Part shown: positions 27,354 to 52,544 of the stretch, one piece after another
How the letters are laid out: each line of letters opens with the position of its first letter
Numbering within the stretch: position 1 is the stretch's first letter
Assembly: GCA_937992195.1 (NCBI GenBank)
Contig: CALKKV010000029.1
Span: 1,268-65,267 of the forward strand
DNA length: 64,000 nucleotides
DNA from: an uncultured Gammaproteobacteria bacterium
Lineage (GTDB): Bacteria > Pseudomonadota > Gammaproteobacteria > Arenicellales > Poriferihabitantaceae
Direction: 5' to 3'
Made by a program: the position numbers and the translations under genes
Notes under the pieces: generated by a model
What the model was told of the DNA's origin: nothing
The model's input: the letters and a program-made list of their open reading frames with translations, nothing else
Database searches by the model: none

Positions 27354-28697
27354 ATGAATACAAGTTCAGAGCAGAGTAAAAGTATCTCCATCCTGGAGGG
27401 AGTTGTCGAAGATCTTTCCCATGATGGTCGAGGCGTTGTAAAAATAGAGTCCAAGGTGTATTTCGTACCTGGAGCGCTTCCCGGGGAAACAGTGACGTTC
27501 TCTCCTAAAAAAAAACGCAAAGGACAATTCAACGGCGAACTGATTTCAATCGAAATGGCCTCTCGAAATCGCGTTGACCCAAAATGTACCTATTTTGGGG
27601 TCTGTGGGGGTTGTACCTTGCAGCATCTCTCCGAAAGGGTTCAAATTTCAATGAAGCAGGAGACGCTATTGGAAACATTGTCAAAAATAGGAAGGGTAAA
27701 TCCGAACCACATCTTGCCTCCTCTTGATTCCGACGTTTGGGGCTATCGCAGGAAGGCTAGGCCTGGGTGTAAAGTGGTTGCAAAAAAAGGCGGCGTGCTT
27801 GTCGGTTTTAGAGAGCAGGGTAGTTCATATCTCACTTCATTGCTTCATTGCGATACCCTGGATGGTCGTTTATCGGTATTGCTCGAGCCACTACATCGGT
27901 TAATTGCCGAGACAAGTTGTGCAAACAGGATTCCTCAAATTGAGATGGCAGCAGGAGACAATGGGGTTTCACTTGTTCTGCGTCATCTGGAGGCCTTAAA
28001 TGAACTCGATTTAAGTTTGATCAAGGAATTTGCGCAGAAACATAAGATCAACTTGTTTTTGCAGCCCGGCGGATTGAATAGTATCCATCCACTTTGGCCG
28101 GAAGAACCAACTCCTTTATTTTATAGATTGCCTTTGTTTGATCTTGAAATACAATTTGCGGCAACAGATTTTATTCAGGTAAATCAGAAAGTTAACGAGA
28201 AAATGATTGGACTCGCTATTGATGCTTTAGATCTCTCATCTGATTCGAATGTCATGGATTTATTTTGTGGGCTCGGAAATTTTACACTTCCCATAGCAAC
28301 GTGCTGCGCTAGTGTGATTGGTATCGAAGGAGAGCAGGCTTTAATAGATAAAGCGAAATTAAACATTGCTCGCAATAGTGCTACTCACAGCTTAAAGCAC
28401 GTGCGTTTTAAAAAAATGGACTTGCACAATGAGCATGTAATCAACCTCGCTGGTGAACCTTGCGACAGAATGTTGTTAGACCCTCCACGATCTGGTGCGA
28501 TGGATGTTGTCACACATCTAGTGCCATTAGTAATGCCAGACGTGCTGGTTTATGTTTCGTGTAATCCGGCGACGCTAGCCCGCGATGCAGAAATATTAGT
28601 GCATCATCATGGGTACACATTGGAAAGCGCAGGTGCGATTAATATGTTTCCCCATACGGCACATGTAGAATCTATAGCAAAATTCGTGCGGAGTTAG
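27354..28697 (+). CDS. rlmD: 23S rRNA m5U1939 methyltransferase
   Basis: TRAM domain, Fe-S motif CTYFGVCGGC, DLFCGLGNF, LDPPRSG, YVSCNPATLARD, MFPHTAHVE. Confidence 0.95.
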   Translation: MNTSSEQSKSISILEGVVEDLSHDGRGVVKIESKVYFVPGALPGETVTFSPKKKRKGQFNGELISIEMASRNRVDPKCTYFGVCGGCTLQHLSERVQISMKQETLLETLSKIGRVNPNHILPPLDSDVWGYRRKARPGCKVVAKKGGVLVGFREQGSSYLTSLLHCDTLDGRLSVLLEPLHRLIAETSCANRIPQIEMAAGDNGVSLVLRHLEALNELDLSLIKEFAQKHKINLFLQPGGLNSIHPLWPEEPTPLFYRLPLFDLEIQFAATDFIQVNQKVNEKMIGLAIDALDLSSDSNVMDLFCGLGNFTLPIATCCASVIGIEGEQALIDKAKLNIARNSATHSLKHVRFKKMDLHNEHVINLAGEPCDRMLLDPPRSGAMDVVTHLVPLVMPDVLVYVSCNPATLARDAEILVHHHGYTLESAGAINMFPHTAHVESIAKFVRS

Positions 28698-28709
28698 TTT
28701 TCCTCTCTG

Positions 28710-28747
28710 GAAAATAAGAAACCGTTTTTAAGCGGCTTCTTATTTTC
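28710..28747. terminator. Bidirectional intrinsic terminator between convergent rlmD and rne
   Basis: GAAAATAAGAA-ACCG...CGGC-TTCTTATTTTC inverted repeat with A/T-rich arms. Confidence 0.7.
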
Positions 28748-28768
28748 TTGAGATGCAGATTCGAATGA

Positions 28769-31804
<3,036 letters not shown>

Positions 31805-41275: not shown

Positions 41276-41352
41276 CGGGGTGTGGCGCAGCCTGGTAGCG
41301 CACCGCAATGGGGTTGCGGTGGTCGGAGGTTCAAATCCTCTCACCCCGACCA
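41276..41352 (+). tRNA. tRNA-Pro(GGG)
   Basis: CGGGGTG acceptor, anticodon arm CCGCA-ATGGGGT-TGCGG, GTTCAAAT T-loop, CCA end. Confidence 0.97.
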
Positions 41353-41799: not shown

Positions 41800-44166
41800 A
41801 TGAAATTAGCAAAAAAGGTGTTCGTCACTTTATTCTGTTTGCTTTTTGTCAGCATTCCTTGGTCATCACTACATGCTAAATCACCAGAAGATATGGAGCT
41901 TGCTGCCGTTGTAAGCGTTATCAATTCTTATCTGCTTGATAGTCCTCTGATTCGAGAGGTGTCGTTAGAACCATCCCAGTTTTTGCAAGGTCCGTATATA
42001 TTCGGAGAAGATTTTACAATCAACTTTAATAGACCTGACACCGACATCTATTTATGTTTTTTCCTGCAAGGTCTTCGAGGCATGCAAGATCAGGAAGTAG
42101 CGGTTGAGTTAAATGGTGTTTCGAGGTCCGTTAGAAATGGTGAAAACTGCTATCTTTTAACAAGCGGATCACTACTTGATCAAAATACTTTCTCGTTTAC
42201 TATTCTCAGCGCTGGGTTAAGTCTGCGACTTCGTCAGCTTGGCATTGAAGCGTCGCGTCAGTATAGCCTTGGTATGCGGTCTTTTACCCGAGCTAATTGG
42301 AATGCGTTAAGCGTGAGAAAAGTACTGCGTGTTTTTGCTTTTGGGGGGCATGCGAAAGAGTCGCAAATCTCCGCGTGGGCTAGCATGCGACCTAAAGTAG
42401 CGATACGCCAAATGCTGAATTTTTCCAAGCATAATCTACGTCTTTCACCGCTGGCAATCGGTGAAAAATATACAGAGCCGGCAAGAGCATATGGAACCTT
42501 ACAGGAGTTTTCCAATTTGTATCTTGGCTCTACTAACTCTAACTTACCAATACCAGTTGGTCAGCGTGATAGGTTTAGGGTGGATGCTGCAAACAATGAT
42601 AATAGTCTTGGTGATTCGTTATTTAGAATGATAACAACGAGGGGGCTCAACCCCTTTAGACACCGGATTGGCCTTTGGGAGACGAACTATCATCTCGCGG
42701 TAAACCTGGCTAAGGCAGCAGTTACTAGAAACCAAGTGGCAATAATGTATGATGAGATTATGGACGCCCATGAAAGGAATTTACCTTATCAAGAAGTGTT
42801 AGCGACAGCTGCCAAATCAGCGGCAGTAGCCGCTCAATACGGCCATTTTCGAAATAGCTGGGTAGCGGATGAATGCCAGTGTAATGAGGACTTTGCAAGA
42901 GAATGGCATCAGTTGTACTTTGGGATATTTGGCGAAGATGATCCTGATTACCACGAAAACATCAGTATCCCCAATACTGCAAAAGCACTAACTGGGATGC
43001 CACTTACAGACAATGGGAATACGATCGGTTTTACTGCTGAAAAACATCATATAGGAAGTTTGACGATACTTGGTAGCACAATAAGCGGTGCGAACGCGAG
43101 TGAGAAAATAGACAATCTTGCTAGAGTTTCGATCAGTCATCCTGAAAGCCAACATAATTTGCCCGTAATGATTATCGCTGGCCTAGCAGATGATAATCTA
43201 ACAGAAACAAAAAAGAGTATATTGAGGGCGGCATGGAGAGCTATGGGTGATCAGCCTTCTTTCTTGGATTTCATTCAAGCCTATGCGATTTCCTATATTT
43301 TTCACGAAGATAGTCTTGAGCAATTTAAGTATTTTTCGAGTTTCGAACGAGCGATCTATATGGCTAATCGTTATAACCTAGAGAATATAGAGTCACTTAC
43401 TGCTGGCCGTTCCAATAGCCTGAGCGGTAATCTGAACCGAGGTTATGCTGGTTTTAACCCTTCGGGAATATTTCGTAACGACAACGCAATTTTGTTTTAT
43501 CCGTCGCACAATGTGTTTGGGGGTCAGACATCGTTAGAAGCTGTGAACTCGAGTAAAGTGCTTGAACACAACTTGAACCGATCAACAGAGTTTCTTGAAC
43601 TGTTTGCAAATTATGCTGAGTGCCAAGAGTGTGATCTTGGCGGCCCATGGAAAAAAGATTGGTCCAGTGTCATACCTAAAAATGGAGAAGAATATAGCGT
43701 TGGAAATGTGGCTAAATGGTTGTGGACCTATATTGTTGGTCATACTGTCGATTATGGCGCTTTAGAACGTGCGTACTTGCTGAGCATATTGGGAGCTGTT
43801 TCTGACGAAGTTGGAACCTATCGTGTGTTTGATTTTGCGCAATTGCTTTGTATACGACAGGAGCGAATTTTAGCTGGCGTGACAAATAATGCGCTGTCTG
43901 ATTTGGTGTCCAGAAGTGCCTGGGAAAATTATTGTGCATTTGATAATGGTTATTCTTCGTCTGAACTGGACTCATTGAACAGAGTGTTTTCTGAGCAAGA
44001 TTTCACCTCCGATGTGAATCGCCTGTTAAATCAAATTGCGGTTGTTGAACTAGCGCTTGACAGTGAAGATCCGGTGCTGAGATTGCGAGCCAATCAACGG
44101 GTTCAGCAAGCGATAGCCTTTATTTTTTCAACCCCATATGTATTTGCGCAAGAGGCTGTGCAATGA
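41800..44166 (+). CDS. Secreted divergent DUF1800-family protein
   Basis: Sec signal; FWE-like LWETNYH, NEDFAREWHQL (cf. NENYARE), TAKALTG; ATGA overlap with downstream DUF1501. Confidence 0.65.
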   Translation: MKLAKKVFVTLFCLLFVSIPWSSLHAKSPEDMELAAVVSVINSYLLDSPLIREVSLEPSQFLQGPYIFGEDFTINFNRPDTDIYLCFFLQGLRGMQDQEVAVELNGVSRSVRNGENCYLLTSGSLLDQNTFSFTILSAGLSLRLRQLGIEASRQYSLGMRSFTRANWNALSVRKVLRVFAFGGHAKESQISAWASMRPKVAIRQMLNFSKHNLRLSPLAIGEKYTEPARAYGTLQEFSNLYLGSTNSNLPIPVGQRDRFRVDAANNDNSLGDSLFRMITTRGLNPFRHRIGLWETNYHLAVNLAKAAVTRNQVAIMYDEIMDAHERNLPYQEVLATAAKSAAVAAQYGHFRNSWVADECQCNEDFAREWHQLYFGIFGEDDPDYHENISIPNTAKALTGMPLTDNGNTIGFTAEKHHIGSLTILGSTISGANASEKIDNLARVSISHPESQHNLPVMIIAGLADDNLTETKKSILRAAWRAMGDQPSFLDFIQAYAISYIFHEDSLEQFKYFSSFERAIYMANRYNLENIESLTAGRSNSLSGNLNRGYAGFNPSGIFRNDNAILFYPSHNVFGGQTSLEAVNSSKVLEHNLNRSTEFLELFANYAECQECDLGGPWKKDWSSVIPKNGEEYSVGNVAKWLWTYIVGHTVDYGALERAYLLSILGAVSDEVGTYRVFDFAQLLCIRQERILAGVTNNALSDLVSRSAWENYCAFDNGYSSSELDSLNRVFSEQDFTSDVNRLLNQIAVVELALDSEDPVLRLRANQRVQQAIAFIFSTPYVFAQEAVQ

Positions 44167-45722
44167 ATCGTAGAAATTTCCTATGGTCGTCTCTCTATTC
44201 AAGTTTGATCTACGGAGCTGGCTCGTTGCCATCATTGTTAGAAGAGTCACATGCTGCTTTTGCGCCGATAAATAATCGCACGCTCATCAATCTTATGTGT
44301 GAGGGTGGTTGTGATTTCAGACATCTTATCGTGCCCGGATACAATCCCAATCAAGACAGCTTTGGATATAAATACTGGCAATATCGGCGCCGGACCCATC
44401 GGCTAGGTTCGAGCCCCAGTGAGTGGCAAGCGCGTTGGGAGCAGGACTATCATGGTTTTACAATTGATGCGCCTGGCACGCTAAATCATGGTGTGGTCTT
44501 CGGAATTTGGAGAGAGGCGGCTTGGCTCATCAAAATGTACAGAGAGGGAAAGCTGGCAATAATTTGCAATGCAGTTGGTGGGCAATCACGTGCGCACGAT
44601 CACTGTCAGTTGATATTAAACCAGGGTAATTTAACCTCCGGTGTAACCGATACCGAACGCTCGGGTTGGGGGGGTAGACTTGCCCGAAGCGCCGGTGGTA
44701 ACGCGGTCAGTTTAACAAATGTTTTAACACCGTTTTGTTTTGGTCCGTTGGGACCGTCGGCAGGATATGAAATGAATGCGGTGGACAATAGGGATTCCAT
44801 TCTAATTTCAGATTCAAGGAACCTTGGGGTTTTTGAAAGTGATCTTTCAATAGATCAAATGTCAGGCATAGCGACACGTCACAAAATGGCTCGCTCTGTT
44901 GCGGGCTACTACGCAAGCGTGCGTCAACAAGGAGTCGATGCGGTGTACAACAAAATTATGGACAATGAGCTAAAGCTGCGTGAAATTGGCGCGTTAATGA
45001 ATGAACGAATTGATTTTGAAGTCCCCCTTTTTATTCGTGGACTTTACGACGATAAAAATCATAACCTGAACAATAATTCTAGCGGACAGTCTCGACGTGT
45101 ATTGAAAAACGCTGAGTTCGGTGAGCAAATCCGTAACCTATTCGATGCTTTGGCATCCAACGATATTCTAAACTTACGCGCGGCGTCTTTAGTGTATGGA
45201 GGATGGGATAGTCATGCAAAGCAGCGTGGGAATGACTACGCCAATGGAGATAAACACGACCCTAATATTGACAGAGGAATAGAGGGCTTCTTCCAGGATA
45301 TTTTTGGGGGTCCATACTACCTAACCAGCGATGCTCCGCACGGTGCCTTATCCGCACTTTGGCAGAGTCTAAATCTCATCGATAAAGAGAAAATTGTTGT
45401 AACAGTCGCAAGTGAGTTTGGACGACAGCTCAGAGATAACGCGGATCATGGTACTGATCATGGCAGAGGAAATATTATGTTGGTCATGGGTGAAAAAGTC
45501 CAGGGCGGCATTTATGGTGAACTGTTTCCACAAAGTGAAGTGAGTAAATACGATGATTTTTCTTTGACCACTCCTGACATTGACGGTTTAACTGAAATTG
45601 ATTCAATATTTAATCATGTTTGTGATTGGGTATCGCCAAACTCTGGACAACTGGTGTTTCCTAATCAGCTGGATGCCATGATTGAACACGGCGTGGTGTT
45701 AAACAGTCTTTTTGAGCCTTAA
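44163..45722 (+). CDS. Tat-exported DUF1501-family protein
   Basis: MNRRNFL twin-Arg signal; GGCD, GWGGRLA, GGWDSH, SEFGR, GTDHG.G motifs. Confidence 0.85.
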   Translation: MNRRNFLWSSLYSSLIYGAGSLPSLLEESHAAFAPINNRTLINLMCEGGCDFRHLIVPGYNPNQDSFGYKYWQYRRRTHRLGSSPSEWQARWEQDYHGFTIDAPGTLNHGVVFGIWREAAWLIKMYREGKLAIICNAVGGQSRAHDHCQLILNQGNLTSGVTDTERSGWGGRLARSAGGNAVSLTNVLTPFCFGPLGPSAGYEMNAVDNRDSILISDSRNLGVFESDLSIDQMSGIATRHKMARSVAGYYASVRQQGVDAVYNKIMDNELKLREIGALMNERIDFEVPLFIRGLYDDKNHNLNNNSSGQSRRVLKNAEFGEQIRNLFDALASNDILNLRAASLVYGGWDSHAKQRGNDYANGDKHDPNIDRGIEGFFQDIFGGPYYLTSDAPHGALSALWQSLNLIDKEKIVVTVASEFGRQLRDNADHGTDHGRGNIMLVMGEKVQGGIYGELFPQSEVSKYDDFSLTTPDIDGLTEIDSIFNHVCDWVSPNSGQLVFPNQLDAMIEHGVVLNSLFEP

Positions 45723-45817
45723 CAATACTTCGTCCGAGTCTTTGCGGGCTATTCTATTATGGGTGTAATGTCCTGGAGCAATCGAGTTCGCAGCAGGTTT
45801 GCGCCGATTGGTCTTAC

Positions 45818-46315
45818 CTAAAGGCAAATTAATACGATCTTTATATTTGTGGATGTCACAGGAAAACAAAGACTGCTTTCAAGTAATGTATCTACTGGAC
45901 GATCGAAGCTTGGCGGTAGCTGATTTAGGAACGCATCGCCATTTTTAAAAATCAAGGAGTTGGTTGGTCCAGATGTCCAGCCAGGGTCGAGGCCTTGCTG
46001 AATTTCTTCAAGATTACTGAGGCTTCTAGGGTCGTTGTCCGAATTATTATTTTCAACGGATGCGATCGCGGCTTTGATGTCGCTGGACGAATATAACTCT
46101 ATAAAGTTCGAGCGAATCTCAAACCCATAAGTGTTCCAGGGTTCAAAGCCATTTTCGTTAGCATGGCAAACTTGGCACTGCCGATCTCCGGACTTGGAGT
46201 CTGGATAGCTTTCTCTCCACTCTTCCAGAAACTCAGGTCTACCTTGCGCGTTCGATGCTAAAAAACAAGCTGAAATTAGTGCAAGTGAAGCGAGCTGTCT
46301 TGCAAAAGTACGCAT
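45818..46315 (-). CDS. Small secreted mono-CxxCH (cytochrome c-like) protein with acidic loop and C-terminal CFP...LICL motif
   Basis: Sec signal (..ASNAQG), CQVCH at 46163-46177, WNTYG, NSDND...SNLEEI..G.DPG; starts 9 bp after DUF1501 stop. Confidence 0.75.
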   Translation of the reverse strand: MRTFARQLASLALISACFLASNAQGRPEFLEEWRESYPDSKSGDRQCQVCHANENGFEPWNTYGFEIRSNFIELYSSSDIKAAIASVENNNSDNDPRSLSNLEEIQQGLDPGWTSGPTNSLIFKNGDAFLNQLPPSFDRPVDTLLESSLCFPVTSTNIKIVLICL

Positions 46316-46324
46316 TGCGTCTGT

Positions 46325-47710
46325 TCAGCTAATGAAACCAAGATCCAAATCTGAATTACTCCAACCACCGTTATTCAAATTCGGAAACAGCTCTCGCAAT
46401 TCACTGTTTGTGAATCCGCCAAACCACTTTGCAACGGTAGAACTCATTTGGTCATGGGAAATCGATGGCACTAATATACCGCGCCCGTTGTCCCAGTATT
46501 GTGGATCATCAGCATTCATGATTGGCATGGTACCGTACACCTTACCGCCGTCTATGGGACCACCCATTACTATCTGATGCCCACCCCAGCCGTGATCGGA
46601 ACCACTGGAATTGCCCACCGCCGTGCGTCCAAAATCACTATTGGAAAAGGTCACGACATCATTCTGTAAGCCCATTTCGACTAAAGCTTCATAAAACGCG
46701 CCGAGCGCAGCGCTTAGCTGCCCTAGATTGCTCGCTTGTGCACTGCTGAGCGCAGCATGATTATCGTAGCCGTCCATCTCGACGTAAAATGTCTGCTGAG
46801 TATCTTCAACTCCGAGGCTGCGGCGAGAGTTCATAAGTGTCGCAATATTTTTAAAACTGCGGCCAATCCGAGTCGATGGAAAACTGGTCTGTAAATTTAG
46901 AATGGGTGAGCGTAATGCTTGTCGCACAAAATCACTCTGGGTTAACGAAGTATTAAATTTTTTACCAAACTCATTCAACAGCACATTGCCATAGTCATGG
47001 CTATACGCTGATTCAATAGCTGCGCGACGCTCTCGTTGAATAGGAACAGTTGATTGATAGCCAGGGACAATATGAACTACACCGCCGAAACCGTAAGGCG
47101 AAGTAATGGCGCCTTCCTGCCAAACGTTACTGGTGCTGGAAACGCTCATATTGAAAGGTACTTGCGCGGTCCATGTGTCGTTGTATAAATCGCCGATTCG
47201 CCCGGCCCAGCCGGTTCTGGTTTCACCTTCGAACGGTAAGCCAGAACGAATGAAGTGTTTTTGCGTAATATGTGAAAATAGCTTCGGTGGTAGCTCAACG
47301 CTGCGATCAATATAGTTCTGTGTGGTGGTTGGTTCTTTCAAAGAACCAACATTGGCAATAAACGCGAGATTGCCAGCGTTGTAAAGGTCCCGGACTTCGC
47401 CCATTGATGGGTGAATACCATATTTGTCGGTACCAGAGTCTATTTTTAAAACCGCGTCTCGATCTAATGCGCGATTTCCTCGCTGTTCTAAGTAGGCATC
47501 ATAATAGTCGTCGCTATCTTCAACTAAAATATTGCAATCGTTGCCTCCGGAAAGATATAGGCATACCATGGCGCGATAACCTTCCGGCCGTGTTGCGGCC
47601 AGGGCTGAAGAAGATAGTACGCCAAGGGTTGTATATGAGCTTGCAACCCCAGTTGCTCCGAACAAGGCGCAGTTACGTAGAAAATTTCGTCGGCTTCTCT
47701 GGTCAGTCAT
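46325..47710 (-). CDS. Tat-exported DUF1501-family protein
   Basis: SRRNFL twin-Arg signal; YRAMVCLYLSGGND, LFSH..Q, TGWAGR, GYDNH, SDFGRT, GSDHGWGG. Confidence 0.9.
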   Translation of the reverse strand: MTDQRSRRNFLRNCALFGATGVASSYTTLGVLSSSALAATRPEGYRAMVCLYLSGGNDCNILVEDSDDYYDAYLEQRGNRALDRDAVLKIDSGTDKYGIHPSMGEVRDLYNAGNLAFIANVGSLKEPTTTQNYIDRSVELPPKLFSHITQKHFIRSGLPFEGETRTGWAGRIGDLYNDTWTAQVPFNMSVSSTSNVWQEGAITSPYGFGGVVHIVPGYQSTVPIQRERRAAIESAYSHDYGNVLLNEFGKKFNTSLTQSDFVRQALRSPILNLQTSFPSTRIGRSFKNIATLMNSRRSLGVEDTQQTFYVEMDGYDNHAALSSAQASNLGQLSAALGAFYEALVEMGLQNDVVTFSNSDFGRTAVGNSSGSDHGWGGHQIVMGGPIDGGKVYGTMPIMNADDPQYWDNGRGILVPSISHDQMSSTVAKWFGGFTNSELRELFPNLNNGGWSNSDLDLGFIS

Positions 47711-47719
47711 CGTTAACTC

Positions 47720-49870
47720 CTAGCGTTGGAAATTGTATTCAGGGGAAACAGTAATCACGGTAAGCGCTTGCTGCGCAATATATTGGCGATTAGCGATAAC
47801 ACTGCCCTGATCGGGGAGCGTCTCGAGAAAGGTGATCACATCGTTACGCAGTGCTTGCGACATGATGCCGCCGAACAATCGCTCTTGATAGAAGTCCATT
47901 AGGTCGTTAAGGTTGTCAGCTAGCGCTTCGGCTTCGGAGAGATTTAGAATCATGGCTCTTCTCCTATCGCTTGAATAGGGCGCAGTGGCACTCACCGGAT
48001 CGGAGCCAACCAACTCTGATGTGGCCATTTGAAGCATACGACCAAGGAATTTAAGAACAATTTCATCCCTAAACAATTTCATTTCAGGTGCGACCAGACC
48101 TTGGTCTTTTAACGAGGCAGGACCATCAGTCGGTGCATAGAAGTTGAACACTGATGGCGCATCGTAGGGACGCTGGCCAAAATCACTATGGGAGTTTCCG
48201 TAACGAATGCGACCAATATCAGATTGTGCGTTAAAGGCTCTCCACAATTTCGAAATCGCTATTACTGGCTCTAGAATTTTACCTCCCGTAGATGAGCTCG
48301 GGGAACCTAATGCCGCTGGGTCCAGTAAAATGGCTTTCACCACCGCGCCTAGATCACCATATTCACCGCTACCATTGTCTCTGAATACCGCGGCGACGCG
48401 GCCAACGTATTCTCTTGGCGGATTGCTCATCACCAAGCGCTCTATCAAACGGGTTGAAATAAACGGCGCGACATTTGGATGATTGGCGATACTATCGAGA
48501 GCCATATCCAAATCCTCCTCTTGAGACAAACCGGCGGGATGAACTCTTCCCATAAACGTCTTTTCATCAAAGTCATGGGCAAAGCCATTCCCCCAAATGA
48601 TCAGCGGATTGAGATCCCACTGAGAGAAAACAAAGGAACCAGGGGAGTAAATCCAACCGGTGAAAATTCGCGCTAGATTTTGAACAGTTTCCGGCGAATA
48701 GGTCTCGATTTCGCGTCCATTAGCATCTAACCTGGGTGTACCGTCTTGATTTAATTCTGTTAACCCAATACTGAAAAGTTGCATGATTTCGCGAGCATAG
48801 TTTTCATCTGGCTGCCCGAATCGGCCTGCTTTTTGATTACCAACAAAGCTAAGGTAGTAAGCCATTGCCGGGTTAAGCGTAATGTCCTTTAATAGATCTC
48901 GATAGCTGCCGAACGCATGCTTTGATAGTACATCTTCATATACTACTGCAGCGCGCTGCCGGCCGCGGAGCGCGTTACCTAGCTGAGTTGATACGACAAA
49001 AACTTGACTCAGAGCATACACAACTCGTTGTCTAAGTTGGTCATTGCTTCGAATAGTACGTTCCCACCATTGGTCCATACGTATCCTTGAGGCTGCAGAG
49101 CCGTCTAGCAATGCATGCATATAGGTGATGCATTCCTCGGTCTCCAGAAAGCCTCGTGTTACACAATTGGTAGTTGGGCCGTTGTTATTCACATCAATGG
49201 CGACATCGTCTTTCAATCTATTTTGGTAGTTGGTGAAAGCATCAATAGACGACACTCTAGGCAGTCTTAATTGTTCGTCAATCCAGGCTTCATAGCCAAT
49301 CTCAAGAACCCGATCAAGTTCTGCCCTGGTTGGCCCGAAAGTAGCTCGGGCTAGAAACAGCTGGGCATCAGCGCGGGTTTTCGGGCCTGTACTTAATTCG
49401 GATGATATACGTGTAACGGTCCAACTACCTTCCGTACCATCTTCCAGTCTGATAACAATAGTGTTGTGAGACAGTTCACTAGCAGGAATTGTGAATTGGT
49501 TGATTCCATTAGTGAGCGTCCCTGCCAGTTGCCCATTAATATAGATCTCGACACTAGCCCCGTCTGGAATATCATCCATGGTGATGCTGAGATCTACGTC
49601 TTGAAACAGGCGATCAAAACGTAGTTCAAGGCCATCAGGATACTGATCGCTGGTATAACGCTGATTGCTCGTTTGTCCTACTCGCAAGGAAACCGGACCG
49701 GTCTCTTCGAGCAGCAGATAGATGATCGGCGAAAGTGCAGAAGTCTTAGGGGGCGCAGCTGAGGAAGTCTGCAGGCTAAGCATCAGCAGAACGCTCAACC
49801 AGACGAAAGTGCAGCAGAATTGTACGCTTAGTCCTCTTTTAGAAGAAGAACGATTCAACACCGAATACAT
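47720..49870 (-). CDS. Secreted DUF1800-family protein
   Basis: FLARATFGP, DQLRQRV.YALSQ.FVVS, NPAM..YL, PDENYAREIMQLFSIGL, NHPNVAPFI, APSVFNFY. Confidence 0.9.
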   Translation of the reverse strand: MYSVLNRSSSKRGLSVQFCCTFVWLSVLLMLSLQTSSAAPPKTSALSPIIYLLLEETGPVSLRVGQTSNQRYTSDQYPDGLELRFDRLFQDVDLSITMDDIPDGASVEIYINGQLAGTLTNGINQFTIPASELSHNTIVIRLEDGTEGSWTVTRISSELSTGPKTRADAQLFLARATFGPTRAELDRVLEIGYEAWIDEQLRLPRVSSIDAFTNYQNRLKDDVAIDVNNNGPTTNCVTRGFLETEECITYMHALLDGSAASRIRMDQWWERTIRSNDQLRQRVVYALSQVFVVSTQLGNALRGRQRAAVVYEDVLSKHAFGSYRDLLKDITLNPAMAYYLSFVGNQKAGRFGQPDENYAREIMQLFSIGLTELNQDGTPRLDANGREIETYSPETVQNLARIFTGWIYSPGSFVFSQWDLNPLIIWGNGFAHDFDEKTFMGRVHPAGLSQEEDLDMALDSIANHPNVAPFISTRLIERLVMSNPPREYVGRVAAVFRDNGSGEYGDLGAVVKAILLDPAALGSPSSSTGGKILEPVIAISKLWRAFNAQSDIGRIRYGNSHSDFGQRPYDAPSVFNFYAPTDGPASLKDQGLVAPEMKLFRDEIVLKFLGRMLQMATSELVGSDPVSATAPYSSDRRRAMILNLSEAEALADNLNDLMDFYQERLFGGIMSQALRNDVITFLETLPDQGSVIANRQYIAQQALTVITVSPEYNFQR

Positions 49871-50377: not shown

Positions 50378-50629
50378 ATGAAGTTGGTTGCGATTATCCT
50401 GAACTTTAATGCGGCTGAGCTCACTTTAAAAGCTGTGGATTCCGCACTGAATGCATTGTCTGCGATAAGCGAAGAATGGCGATTAATTGTGGTTGATAAC
50501 GCTTCTACCGACGATAGTGCTGTCGAGATCAACACTCAAATCGTATCCAATAAAAAAGCCACTGGAGGGATCTGGAACTATGTTGAGTTTATCCAATCTT
50601 CTGAGAATGGCGGGTTACTGACTTTTTAG
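50378..50629 (+). pseudogene. Truncated GT2 glycosyltransferase (N-terminal 83 aa only)
   Basis: VAIILNFN, IVVDNASTDDS; ends at SENGG where N.GF..G.N and the rest of the GT-A fold should continue. Confidence 0.7.
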
Positions 50630-50772: not shown

Positions 50773-52389
50773 CTATGGAATAATTGTTACCAAAGTAGTT
50801 TGTATTCCACTGACGTCATTTCCATCATTTACGGTGTAGGAAATCGTGCGTGCCGTTGTGACAGGTGTGGCCCCAGCAGGAACCTCGTAGGAGTAGGTAA
50901 TACTTTCAATAGCATTTTCGAATGTTTCGTCCGTAACCTGCGCCCCGGCTTCAAGTCTAATCAGTAGCGTAGCGCTTTGTTGGCCGCTTACATCAAGCCC
51001 AGTTGGTGGGTTATCTAAACTCAAGCTGTCTCCATCTTGTGGATTTTGCACGCTCACCGTCGCAGATATTATGCTTGCTCCTAGAGAGCTTTGTGTAATG
51101 GTGGCGTTAGAGCTGGGATTTACAGCATTGCCACCAATAGTAAAGGAAGCTCCTCCTGTAACGCTAATGCTGGGTTCTACAGTTCCTCCATCATTTGTTG
51201 GATCGCCAACTCCATCTCCACCATCCGTAGCATCACCATCAGTTCCATCTGTCCCGTCATCATCAGTGGGCGGATCAAGAAAATCTGCGGTCAGATCGAC
51301 GTCGCATTCATTTAATGGGTCGGTCAGGGTCGGGCCAGTAGCGGTGTCAGTGTCAGTATCCGTATCCGTGCCATCAGTTGTATCTGTACCGGTATCTGTG
51401 TCTGTATCTGTATCGGTACCGGTATCATCAGTCGTATCAGTAGCAGTTGCTGTGGTGCCGGAAGATTCTTCCGGGATCACAAATCGAATCGTGTCGGCCG
51501 AATAGCTGAATCCATCGTTGACATAAAGGGTGGCAATATTATTACCCGCGTCAAGCTGCACGTCGCTGTTGAGATTTACGCAGGGTATATCTAATTCTCT
51601 TATCGATGTCTCACCATTAATAAACCAGCTGTAGCTCAAATCAAATGGTGCATCATCCGGGTCAGTGGATGATCTAGGATCGAGAAAGAAAGTACCACTG
51701 GTTGTGATACCTGTCCCTGCAACAGCACGAGGTTGACTTGTGCTAAGCAAAAAACTGCTCTCGTCAATAAAAACGACATTATCGATCAGAGTGAAGTATC
51801 CAAGACCTTCGCCTCTGGTGTTTTGGGTGAATTCAATAGCAATTTCTTGGCCGACGAGTTGATGCGTATCGATAAAGTGACCACTGAAGGCAGTATCTCT
51901 TGGCTCACTCGGGCAGCCTTCGGCGAGCTGTACAATTGCTGTGCGATAGGGTTGTTCGGAAATCACAGCACCAGTGGAATCGATAATATTAACGATAAAG
52001 TCGACAGGTTGGTCGCCCGGATCGGCGCTCAGGGTTTCTGTAAGCGCGGAAAAAATGACGCCGTTGCCGGCGATAAAAGGTTGAGATCTCAGCGTTGCAA
52101 TGGAATCCGTATCACCGTTTGGATTAGATCGTAGTAGGGCAGCGTAGTTACTTGTTGGATTTCCATTGAACGATATGGCCGTAGTGTCATTACCAGAAAA
52201 ACAGCTACCTTTAGCAGCGAGACTTGCAAAACCGCCGTTAATACCTCCGGGTGTCCATCCTTGAAAGGTGCCACTTTCAAAGTCTCCATCGAACAGTAAG
52301 CCGGTTTGCGCATCAGCGTTCGAGACAAAAAATACCGATTGCGCGATCATCGCTGCGAGTGGAAGTTTGGAACGTAGAAAAGTCTTCAA
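50773..52389 (-). CDS. Secreted acidic multi-domain protein (jelly-roll/CBM-like + PKD-like + Asp/Thr linker + Ig/cadherin-like)
   Basis: Probable TTG start 52389 gives a signal ending ..SNADA; FDGDFESGTFQGWT; PRAVAG..LD...STDPD..LSYSW; ARTISYTVNDG (ORF track starts at 52440). Confidence 0.75.
   Translation of the reverse strand: MKTFLRSKLPLAAMIAQSVFFVSNADAQTGLLFDGDFESGTFQGWTPGGINGGFASLAAKGSCFSGNDTTAISFNGNPTSNYAALLRSNPNGDTDSIATLRSQPFIAGNGVIFSALTETLSADPGDQPVDFIVNIIDSTGAVISEQPYRTAIVQLAEGCPSEPRDTAFSGHFIDTHQLVGQEIAIEFTQNTRGEGLGYFTLIDNVVFIDESSFLLSTSQPRAVAGTGITTSGTFFLDPRSSTDPDDAPFDLSYSWFINGETSIRELDIPCVNLNSDVQLDAGNNIATLYVNDGFSYSADTIRFVIPEESSGTTATATDTTDDTGTDTDTDTDTGTDTTDGTDTDTDTDTATGPTLTDPLNECDVDLTADFLDPPTDDDGTDGTDGDATDGGDGVGDPTNDGGTVEPSISVTGGASFTIGGNAVNPSSNATITQSSLGASIISATVSVQNPQDGDSLSLDNPPTGLDVSGQQSATLLIRLEAGAQVTDETFENAIESITYSYEVPAGATPVTTARTISYTVNDGNDVSGIQTTLVTIIP
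51341..51440 (-). repeat. Degenerate (Thr-Asp)n low-complexity linker
   Basis: TDTTDDTGTDTDTDTDTGTDTTDGTDTDTDTDT encoded by varied codons. Confidence 0.8.
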
Positions 52390-52544
52390 TGGTCTGCTTC
52401 TTTGTATGACGGAATCAAAAGCGATCCCTTGATTAATCAATTAACCTAACATTATCGGTCATGATGGCCCAAAGTGGAATCATTTTGACTACTCTCAGGT
52501 ATTATAATCCTTTAGAATCCGCGGTTTTTTGGAAAACCAACACT

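Follow-up and report, generated by a model that had tools for sequence, protein, structure and literature searches.

A three-gene DUF1800-DUF1501 operon with a haem-motif domain in one bacterial order, and a divergent second pair facing it

Described systems and the window locus

Proteins of the families DUF1800 (PF08811) and DUF1501 (PF07394) are encoded by a two-gene operon that has been reported beside bacterial chitin synthases, with two such pairs in Agrobacterium vitis (PMC5122149), and that is also listed near vgrG genes of Xanthomonas (PMC6653060). In bacteria of the Planctomycetes-Verrucomicrobia-Chlamydiae group, DUF1501 occurs with PSCyt/PSD cytochromes, and roles in electron transport or involving carbohydrates have been proposed (PMC3542564, PMC5615132). 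Here we describe a related locus in a 64,000 nt stretch of an uncultured gammaproteobacterium of the order Arenicellales (contig CALKKV010000029.1), referred to as the window, where two DUF1800-DUF1501 pairs converge and one of them continues into a gene for a secreted protein with a CxxCH haem-attachment motif. The pair itself is already known; new here is the third gene, which encodes an unclassified haem-motif domain. DUF1501 modules are abundant, with more than 50 PSD1 matches in one genome and more than 10,000 DUF1800 clusters at 50% identity, and no function has been assigned to them since they were first described. Both families also gave matches in Caulobacter vibrioides, which served as a control. 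The locus offers a small, conserved, three-gene version.

Open reading frame (ORF) coordinates confirm the five genes, the overlap and the spacings given in the original prediction, which had been made from the window sequence. The forward strand carries a pair of divergent subtype, designated a. Its DUF1800 gene (41800..44166, 788 amino acids, with a predicted signal peptide, an N-terminal tag and a small unclassified domain) overlaps by an ATGA with the gene for a DUF1501 protein bearing a twin-arginine motif (44163..45722, 519 amino acids), and a co-oriented third gene is absent. The b subtype lies on the reverse strand and consists of DUF1800 (47720..49870, 716 amino acids, with a mostly helical core at residues 172-716 preceded by an N-terminal tag and a small domain), DUF1501 (46325..47710, 461 amino acids, with a signal for twin-arginine translocation (Tat) and a modelled alkaline-phosphatase-superfamily fold) and the CxxCH-domain protein (45818..46315, 165 amino acids, a predicted monohaem c protein). 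Two 9-bp gaps separate the b genes, and 95 bp lie between the convergent stops. In the window, the b operon is therefore complete, and the ancient a subtype that meets it head-to-head lacks a third gene of its own. All four family assignments scored above the Pfam cut-offs: PF08811 gave 297 bits for b and a weak 38.6 bits for a (cut-off 26.1), and PF07394 gave 81.6 bits for b and 49 bits for a (cut-off 27). In profile-profile comparisons the two DUF1501 proteins share 20% identity and the two DUF1800 proteins 14% (profile probability 94%), so a recent duplication is rejected, as had been argued before, and judged by sequence the pairs are ancient paralogues.

The locus resembles the described two-gene operon in its families, in the Tat motif on DUF1501, in the presence of more than one pair per genome, and in gene order, which is the same in 71/73 a-type and 47/49 b-type loci with room (the reversed order, DUF1501 ahead of DUF1800, was seen in L161 and L354). 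It departs from that operon in three respects: a further gene encodes an unclassified CxxCH domain, in most cases fused to a GSDH propeller; the a subtype is divergent and hardly recognized by Pfam; and the proteins bear terminal tags specific to the lineage. With the PSCyt1/PSCyt2/PSD1 plus DUF1501 modules of Planctomycetes and Verrucomicrobia it shares a Tat-exported DUF1501 beside a large exported partner, haem c motifs and carbohydrate-binding fusions. PSCyt3/PSD2-5 proteins pair with DUF1552, and there is a likeness to this parallel system as well, in that the present CxxCH domain is itself fused to a DUF1587/1595/1592/1588 protein. Unlike in the PSCyt/PSD modules, however, the partner is DUF1800, which has no significant profile match to the PSD1/PSD2 regions, and the haem domain is of a different family and is usually encoded by a separate gene.

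A conserved three-gene operon in one order

What is conserved, within one bacterial order, is an operon of three genes: DUF1800, DUF1501 and the CxxCH domain. A search of the order with the domain alignment returned 56 places in 42/243 genomes, and the surroundings of all 56 were read. At 49 of these, 40 with an a-type and 9 with a b-type DUF1501, the domain comes immediately after the DUF1501 gene in the same orientation, which bears out the expectation that the CxxCH gene would be linked to the pair in other genomes; the remaining seven comprise five unlinked copies, one near a pair but divergent from it, and one on a contig too short to judge. The reverse count gave 55 a-type DUF1800 matches, ten of them at a contig edge. 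Among the 45 that could be read downstream, 37 have the CxxCH domain as third gene, while one is followed by a GSDH gene without the domain, one precedes a complete triple in a tandem array, and six, including the a pair of the window, have none. The same domain accompanies both DUF1800 subtypes, even though these are mutually so dissimilar (14% identity).

A second a-type operon is found on contig C48 of the same genome (G000:C48:55273-61293, L021). It encodes DUF1800, DUF1501 and a CxxCH domain fused to a GSDH propeller, which are 44%, 47% and 36% identical, respectively, to the corresponding window proteins. This operon converges on genes judged to encode GDP-fucose synthase and WecA-like, CapD-like and CysC proteins, and the context at L016 is alike. 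The closest named homologues of the window proteins are from Arenicella (72% for DUF1501b), and a named homologue of the three-gene version occurs in Arenicella sp. 4NH20-0111. No paper on the three-gene operon or its haem domain was found in the open-access literature searched. The convergent five-gene layout, which the original prediction had put forward as a system, was seen in no other locus read; it is rejected as a conserved arrangement and is an ordinary genomic juxtaposition. Tandem clusters do recur, as a b triple followed by an a triple (L321), two a triples (L317), or two a pairs with one third gene (L328).

The haem-motif protein had also been taken for a stand-alone component. This holds for the window copy, from which GSDH (PF07995, the family of PQQ-dependent sugar dehydrogenases) is absent, but stand-alone copies are the minority form and the domain is usually fused to the propeller (82-120 bits in six fusions). 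In P0266 the CxxCH domain, GSDH (88.5 bits) and a b-type DUF1800 are joined in one chain, and the domain of this protein groups with b-linked GSDH fusions in the tree (95/88). P0003, from a three-member cluster, joins the CxxCH domain to PKD, CBM2 and DUF1587/1595/1592/1588, the partner family of the PSCyt3 system. Six b-linked copies stand alone like that of the window and form one supported group (99/98), and three b-linked copies are GSDH fusions; the tree was built from 120 columns and its bootstrap had not settled. Divergent copies of the domain also head large PKD and multihaem proteins with 10 and 14 CxxCH motifs (L197:7244-9715 and L198:3549-7826), one of which adjoins a 24-haem gene.

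Since the DUF1800-DUF1501 pair forms a conserved unit with a haem-motif protein, a redox role outside the cytoplasm is likely for it. Our preferred reading, held tentatively and at somewhat less than even confidence, is that the operon specifies a redox metalloenzyme that is exported and has carbohydrates as its probable substrates. Hints of carbohydrates come from the genes judged to serve polysaccharide synthesis next to the C48 operon, from the chitin synthases adjoining the pair elsewhere (PMC5122149), and from a scan of 37 long DUF1800 proteins, which include fusions to PA14, CBM60, malectin, LamG and PKD domains. In this scheme DUF1501 would be the catalytic subunit, folding in the cytoplasm before Tat export and holding metal in a site of three His and several carboxylates, and DUF1800 is predicted to bind and position it as a scaffold for targeting, with exchangeable N-terminal binding or anchoring domains. 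The CxxCH domain would receive haem c from the cytochrome c maturation (Ccm) system, its free N-terminal amine would supply the sixth ligand as in cytochrome f, and it would exchange electrons with the DUF1501 site; most a-type operons would draw these electrons from the fused propeller of sugar-dehydrogenase type. For the a pair of the window, the cytochrome may be supplied by the b operon or by the one on C48. Three predictions follow from the scheme: the haem c is ligated by an N-terminal amine, His replaces the nucleophile of the hydrolases, and electrons pass between the two.

Several findings weigh against this reading. The 49 linked places are kin, mostly from one genus, and represent few independent events; within the order the domain is unlinked in 5/56 places, and it provides the third gene for nine of the 35 PF08811 matches. 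Nor is the cytochrome the general third part that it had been supposed to be, as the third gene is absent in 39/44 a-type metagenome loci with room (of the five with it, two are identical and all are in the best-scoring group) and in 42/43 b-type genome loci with room (the one with it is an Arenicella record); these broad samples may overlap the order-wide set. CxxCH is present in just 1/150 DUF1800 representatives, namely P0266, which is a single sequence and has a lysine-rich linker. In a 401-genome sample of the class, the domain occurs in six genomes outside the order, never beside the DUF pair, and its fusion partners there are PKD or multihaem domains; beta-helix fusions outside the order likewise have no pair nearby. 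The best PDB match of the propeller is Hedgehog-interacting protein (HHIP, E 2e-17), ahead of soluble glucose dehydrogenase (E 1e-9), and pqqC, which is present in the genome of the window, was not found in 4/4 relatives with a GSDH fusion. Because the third gene is rare in the broad samples, the CxxCH protein is a lineage-specific partner and not a universal subunit of DUF1800-DUF1501. Other cytochromes follow the pair at the distant a-type loci L058 and L071, perhaps by chance, and two further distant a-type pairs have in the third-gene slot an Ig-domain protein that carries the IPTL-CTERM sorting motif (L066:6710-8278 and L084:10217-11794).

Proteins of the operon

The 165 amino acid window protein has no Pfam family. 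Its haem-attachment motif, CQVCH (46163..46177, reverse strand; C47, C50 and H51 of protein residues 47-51), is invariant in 55/55 aligned rows, which were cut around CxxCH. The domain comprises about 115 residues, and the two Cys, the His, Y37, N61, Y63, G64, P111 and W113 are invariant in the 55 rows, where no conserved Met or second His is found. It is N-terminal in all 68 unique proteins examined, and CxxCH is present in every full-length member. A (-3,-1) signal-peptidase pattern lies exactly eight residues before a conserved Trp in 66/68 (the other two lacked this anchor); by our own rule, which is not a trained predictor, 70/70 anchored rows show the pattern at that offset versus 0-28 of 70 at eight neighboring offsets. 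The first predicted mature residue has 14 different identities. The lack of a conserved Met or second His, together with a fixed N-terminus that leaves the side chain free to vary, suggests cytochrome f-like ligation of the haem by the N-terminal amine; the invariant tyrosines are an alternative sixth ligand.

In cytochrome f, the N-terminal Tyr1 and His25 ligate the haem (PMC8044140), and Cyc2 carries the motif AXPXFAR...CXXCH (10.1101/228056). The present domain likewise has its CxxCH shortly after the signal cleavage site (at His26 of the predicted mature protein), no Met ligand, and often a Pro as second residue. Unlike these proteins, it is a portable N-terminal module of about 115 residues with a D-x-D...E-I...PGW pattern, and Pfam and PDB profile searches gave no sequence match to either. 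The resemblance is one of logic rather than of established homology. A divergent member that starts AVA-EPIFARQ...CDACH, like the Cyc2 motif, may bridge both families (L199:1605-2399).

The usual features of a c-type cytochrome are in place, namely a conserved CxxCH, an exported protein and a maturation system in the genome, which encodes CcmC, CcmF and CcmE, and also TatC; the presence of the maturation and Tat genes had been named earlier as a point to be checked. They speak against the very improbable alternative that the domain is a temptin-like N-terminal module stabilized by calcium or disulfides, with no haem and no redox link. What favors such a module is that language-model look-alikes of the domain include Temptin_C and TSP3_bac clusters (0.90-0.92, near chance level), that the D-x-D...E-I motif is conserved, and that Pfam cytochrome c gave a weak match in only 1/9 members (E 0.011). 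The Temptin_C hidden Markov model (PF24784) matched none of the same nine members, although the atlas look-alikes scored 0.90-0.91, and neither the window protein nor the nine aligned members matched PSCyt1/2/3 in Pfam. Sequence and profile searches of the PDB with the domain returned nothing usable.

Both DUF1501 proteins contain the RRNFL twin-arginine motif and the Asp/His motifs noted earlier (GGxD, G[WY]DxH, S[ED]FGR and DHG). The Tat model TIGR01409 passes for b (17.9, cut-off 16.7) and is not listed for a. Conserved polar residues are D58, H147, D316, H318, D359, R362, D372 and H373 in b, and D51, H145, D349, H351, E418, R421, D432 and H433 in a; across 119 b and 56 a rows these positions (D/E at 359) are invariant or nearly so. 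The structure model of DUF1501b (119 rows; predicted local distance difference test (pLDDT) 90.8) matches PafA (Z 18.1, root-mean-square deviation 4.1, 275 residues) and ENPP6 (Z 17.7), and Foldseek returned sulfatases at E 1e-5. DUF1501 is thus, as judged from the model, a member of the alkaline phosphatase superfamily by fold, as the original prediction had it. Sequence and profile searches of the PDB with DUF1501b gave nothing usable.

Like PafA, the ENPP/NPP enzymes and the sulfatases (PMC11677397), DUF1501 has the core fold (about 240-275 residues aligned at Z 14-18) and the Asp/His motifs DxH, SD and DHG. It differs in that GG replaces DG behind strand 1 and is followed, four residues on, by an invariant Asp, in having SDFG for SDHG and a His at the putative nucleophile position, and in its habitual large partner. 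In the hydrolases of the superfamily, the second metal is bound by the Asp behind strand 1 and by the His of SDHG/ADHG. In DUF1501 the residue before GG is variable, being Asp in 21/56 a rows and with Asp outside the six commonest residues in b. The SDHG position reads SDFG or EFG in 119/119 b and 55/56 a rows. The nucleophile of the superfamily, a Ser, Thr or Cys, sits at the end of one helix (PMC11677397). In the model, H147 opens the helix 147-156 and lies ten residues before a Gly, as do the Thr and Cys nucleophiles of the hydrolase rows compared; it is invariant in 119/119 b rows, as is H145 in 56/56 a rows, and is preceded by Ser in 104/119 b rows, a residue not kept in a. From this match in spacing and helix position we infer that a His takes the place of the nucleophile and that the metal site has been remodelled. 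The register rests on spacing and helix position, because profile alignments of DUF1501 with NPP, phosphonoacetate-hydrolase-like and sulfatase families were not significant (best E 0.015; reversed controls 0.07), and SDFG aligns to SDHG at E 0.015 only.

With His in place of Ser, Thr or Cys, DUF1501 would be unable to act as a phosphatase or sulfatase of the standard kind. It may nevertheless be a hydrolase or group transferase together with DUF1800, acting on envelope or glycan substrates through a phospho- or sulfo-His at H147 or a metal-activated water, with the cytochrome-propeller gene a co-exported, co-regulated accessory of a single pathway of the lineage and not a subunit. We regard this as somewhat unlikely. 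The nearest folds are all hydrolases or transferases, the Asp/His ligands and an invariant Arg are retained, 81/87 broadly sampled pair loci lack a linked cytochrome, and the pair travels with bacterial chitin synthases (PMC5122149); on the other side stand the absence of Ser, Thr or Cys from the putative nucleophile position, the change of the SDHG His to Phe, and the finding of one CxxCH domain with both subtypes, fused in places to DUF1800 and to a DUF1592-type protein. The redox reading has a stronger form, in which DUF1501 is a redox-active branch with His for the nucleophile, DUF1800 a scaffold of new fold, and the haem domains new portable monohaem modules ligated by their own N-terminal amine. 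This form is unlikely as a whole. If true, it would account for the repeated recruitment of unrelated cytochromes by DUF1501 in different phyla, and the small operon would lend itself to tests of the idea.

Both DUF1800 proteins have Sec-type signals, judged by eye, as had been stated earlier. The model of the core (545 residues) is confident (pLDDT 93.8) and mostly helical. It gave no Foldseek match at E<=0.001, and the best structural match by VIA reached Z 6.3 over 57 C-terminal residues; the model was searched whole, so a single-domain match can be missed. As this confident model matched no solved structure, DUF1800 is a target for structural work. Sequence and profile searches of the PDB with DUF1800b returned nothing usable, nor did a language-model atlas search with the N-terminal domain of DUF1800a. 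Comparison by hhalign with the PSD1/PSD2 regions of the PSCyt partner proteins (DUF1549/1553 and DUF1585-1595) reached a best E of 0.046 over 58 C-terminal columns (controls 0.33-0.55) with shallow alignments of 28 and 30 rows. The N-terminal cargo varies, and PKD, Ig, PA14, CBM60, malectin, LamG, FG-GAP and Calx-beta domains were found among the 37 of 150 DUF1800 representatives that were scanned, which were picked for length.

Terminal tags and the insertion after tRNA-Pro

DUF1800a carries a lineage-specific, amphipathic N-terminal tag, AAVVSVINSYLLDS (41902..41943, forward strand), and DUF1800b the tag LSPIIYLLLEE (49703..49735, reverse strand), which is also seen in homologues. The PIIxLLL(D/E)-like pattern, present on both subtypes, was found in 30/39 order loci with a third gene and 8/13 without, and in 1/66 and 0/52 distant loci against a background of 36/902; a few of the matches fall in signal peptides and a few tags are missed. 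A similar tag stands at the C-terminus of six other proteins. Further secreted carriers of this kind are encoded on C1, C10, C39, C61 and C63 of the same genome and at L018:7418-8182. The CxxCH protein ends in a C-x13-C-L tag, CFPVTSTNIKIVLICL (45821..45868, reverse strand), common to other secreted proteins of the genome. Its pattern, C-[FV]-P-x(~10)-[VI]-[IF]-C-L, is found on nine secreted-looking proteins (window, C3, C8, C35, two on C46, C48, C71 and C76), a tenth match being spurious, and the tag is on 39/43 CxxCH-domain proteins of the order loci; it matched no NCBIfam sorting model. Judged by their sequence, both tags are candidate lineage-specific sorting or anchoring signals. A role as a docking pair between DUF1800 and the cytochrome is unsupported, as the DUF1800 tag occurs with or without the third gene.

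Such tags enter into a further alternative, that the module is a surface assembly with little or no catalysis, for adhesion or for metal or mineral binding, and that the genes cluster because of common lineage-specific export or anchoring tags. DUF1800 fusions are mostly to Ig, PKD, cadherin, Calx-beta and FG-GAP domains, both tags are on many unrelated secreted proteins, and two DUF1800 proteins are abundant in mineralising vesicles of Entotheonella (PMC12981691). This alternative is nonetheless quite improbable, given that eight polar DUF1501 residues are kept across subtypes 20% identical and that Tat export is, by general knowledge, typical of a folded, cofactor-bearing enzyme (argued in PMC3542564). 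In addition, the similar occurrence of the DUF1800 tag with and without a third gene means that the tags do not explain the fixed gene order.

The order upstream of the five genes is pheT-ihfA-merR-tRNA-Pro (gene names judged from translations), and tRNA-Pro(GGG) (41276..41352, forward strand) marks the left edge of an insertion that ends before gltX. Ten genomes of the same genus were compared: gltX directly follows tRNA-Pro in five, a single 555 amino acid ORF lies between them in one, other DNA in three, and one stretch was too short to judge. None of the ten has the five genes of the window within the stretch read at tRNA-Pro. As the interval differs among these genomes and none carries the genes, the block is a variable insertion after tRNA-Pro. 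This insertion, like the second a-type operon on C48 and the terminal tags, had been missed in the original prediction. No repeated tRNA 3' end was found in the window, and no integrase-sized ORF was seen in the insertion in the ORF list of the window. A different insertion at the same tRNA-Pro (L372, G004:C2) is accompanied by a repeat of the tRNA 3' end some 6 kb off, the kind of trace that site-specific integration leaves.

Near the right edge of the insertion is an 83 amino acid fragment of a family 2 glycosyltransferase (50378..50629, forward strand; Pfam GT2 E 3e-6), probably a remnant, which is 34% identical to the N-terminus of a 335 amino acid gene product on C95. Adjoining gltX is the 555 amino acid ORF (50773-52440, reverse strand), whose product looks secreted, contains a DT-rich linker and belongs to no Pfam family, and which is also present in one genome of the same genus (L371). 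Scans for promoters and terminators found about as many as expected by chance (18 versus 17.2 and 10 versus 8.8). AT skew is strong (-0.35) in one 2-kb bin of the window, at about 28000-30000, perhaps reflecting a repetitive gene.

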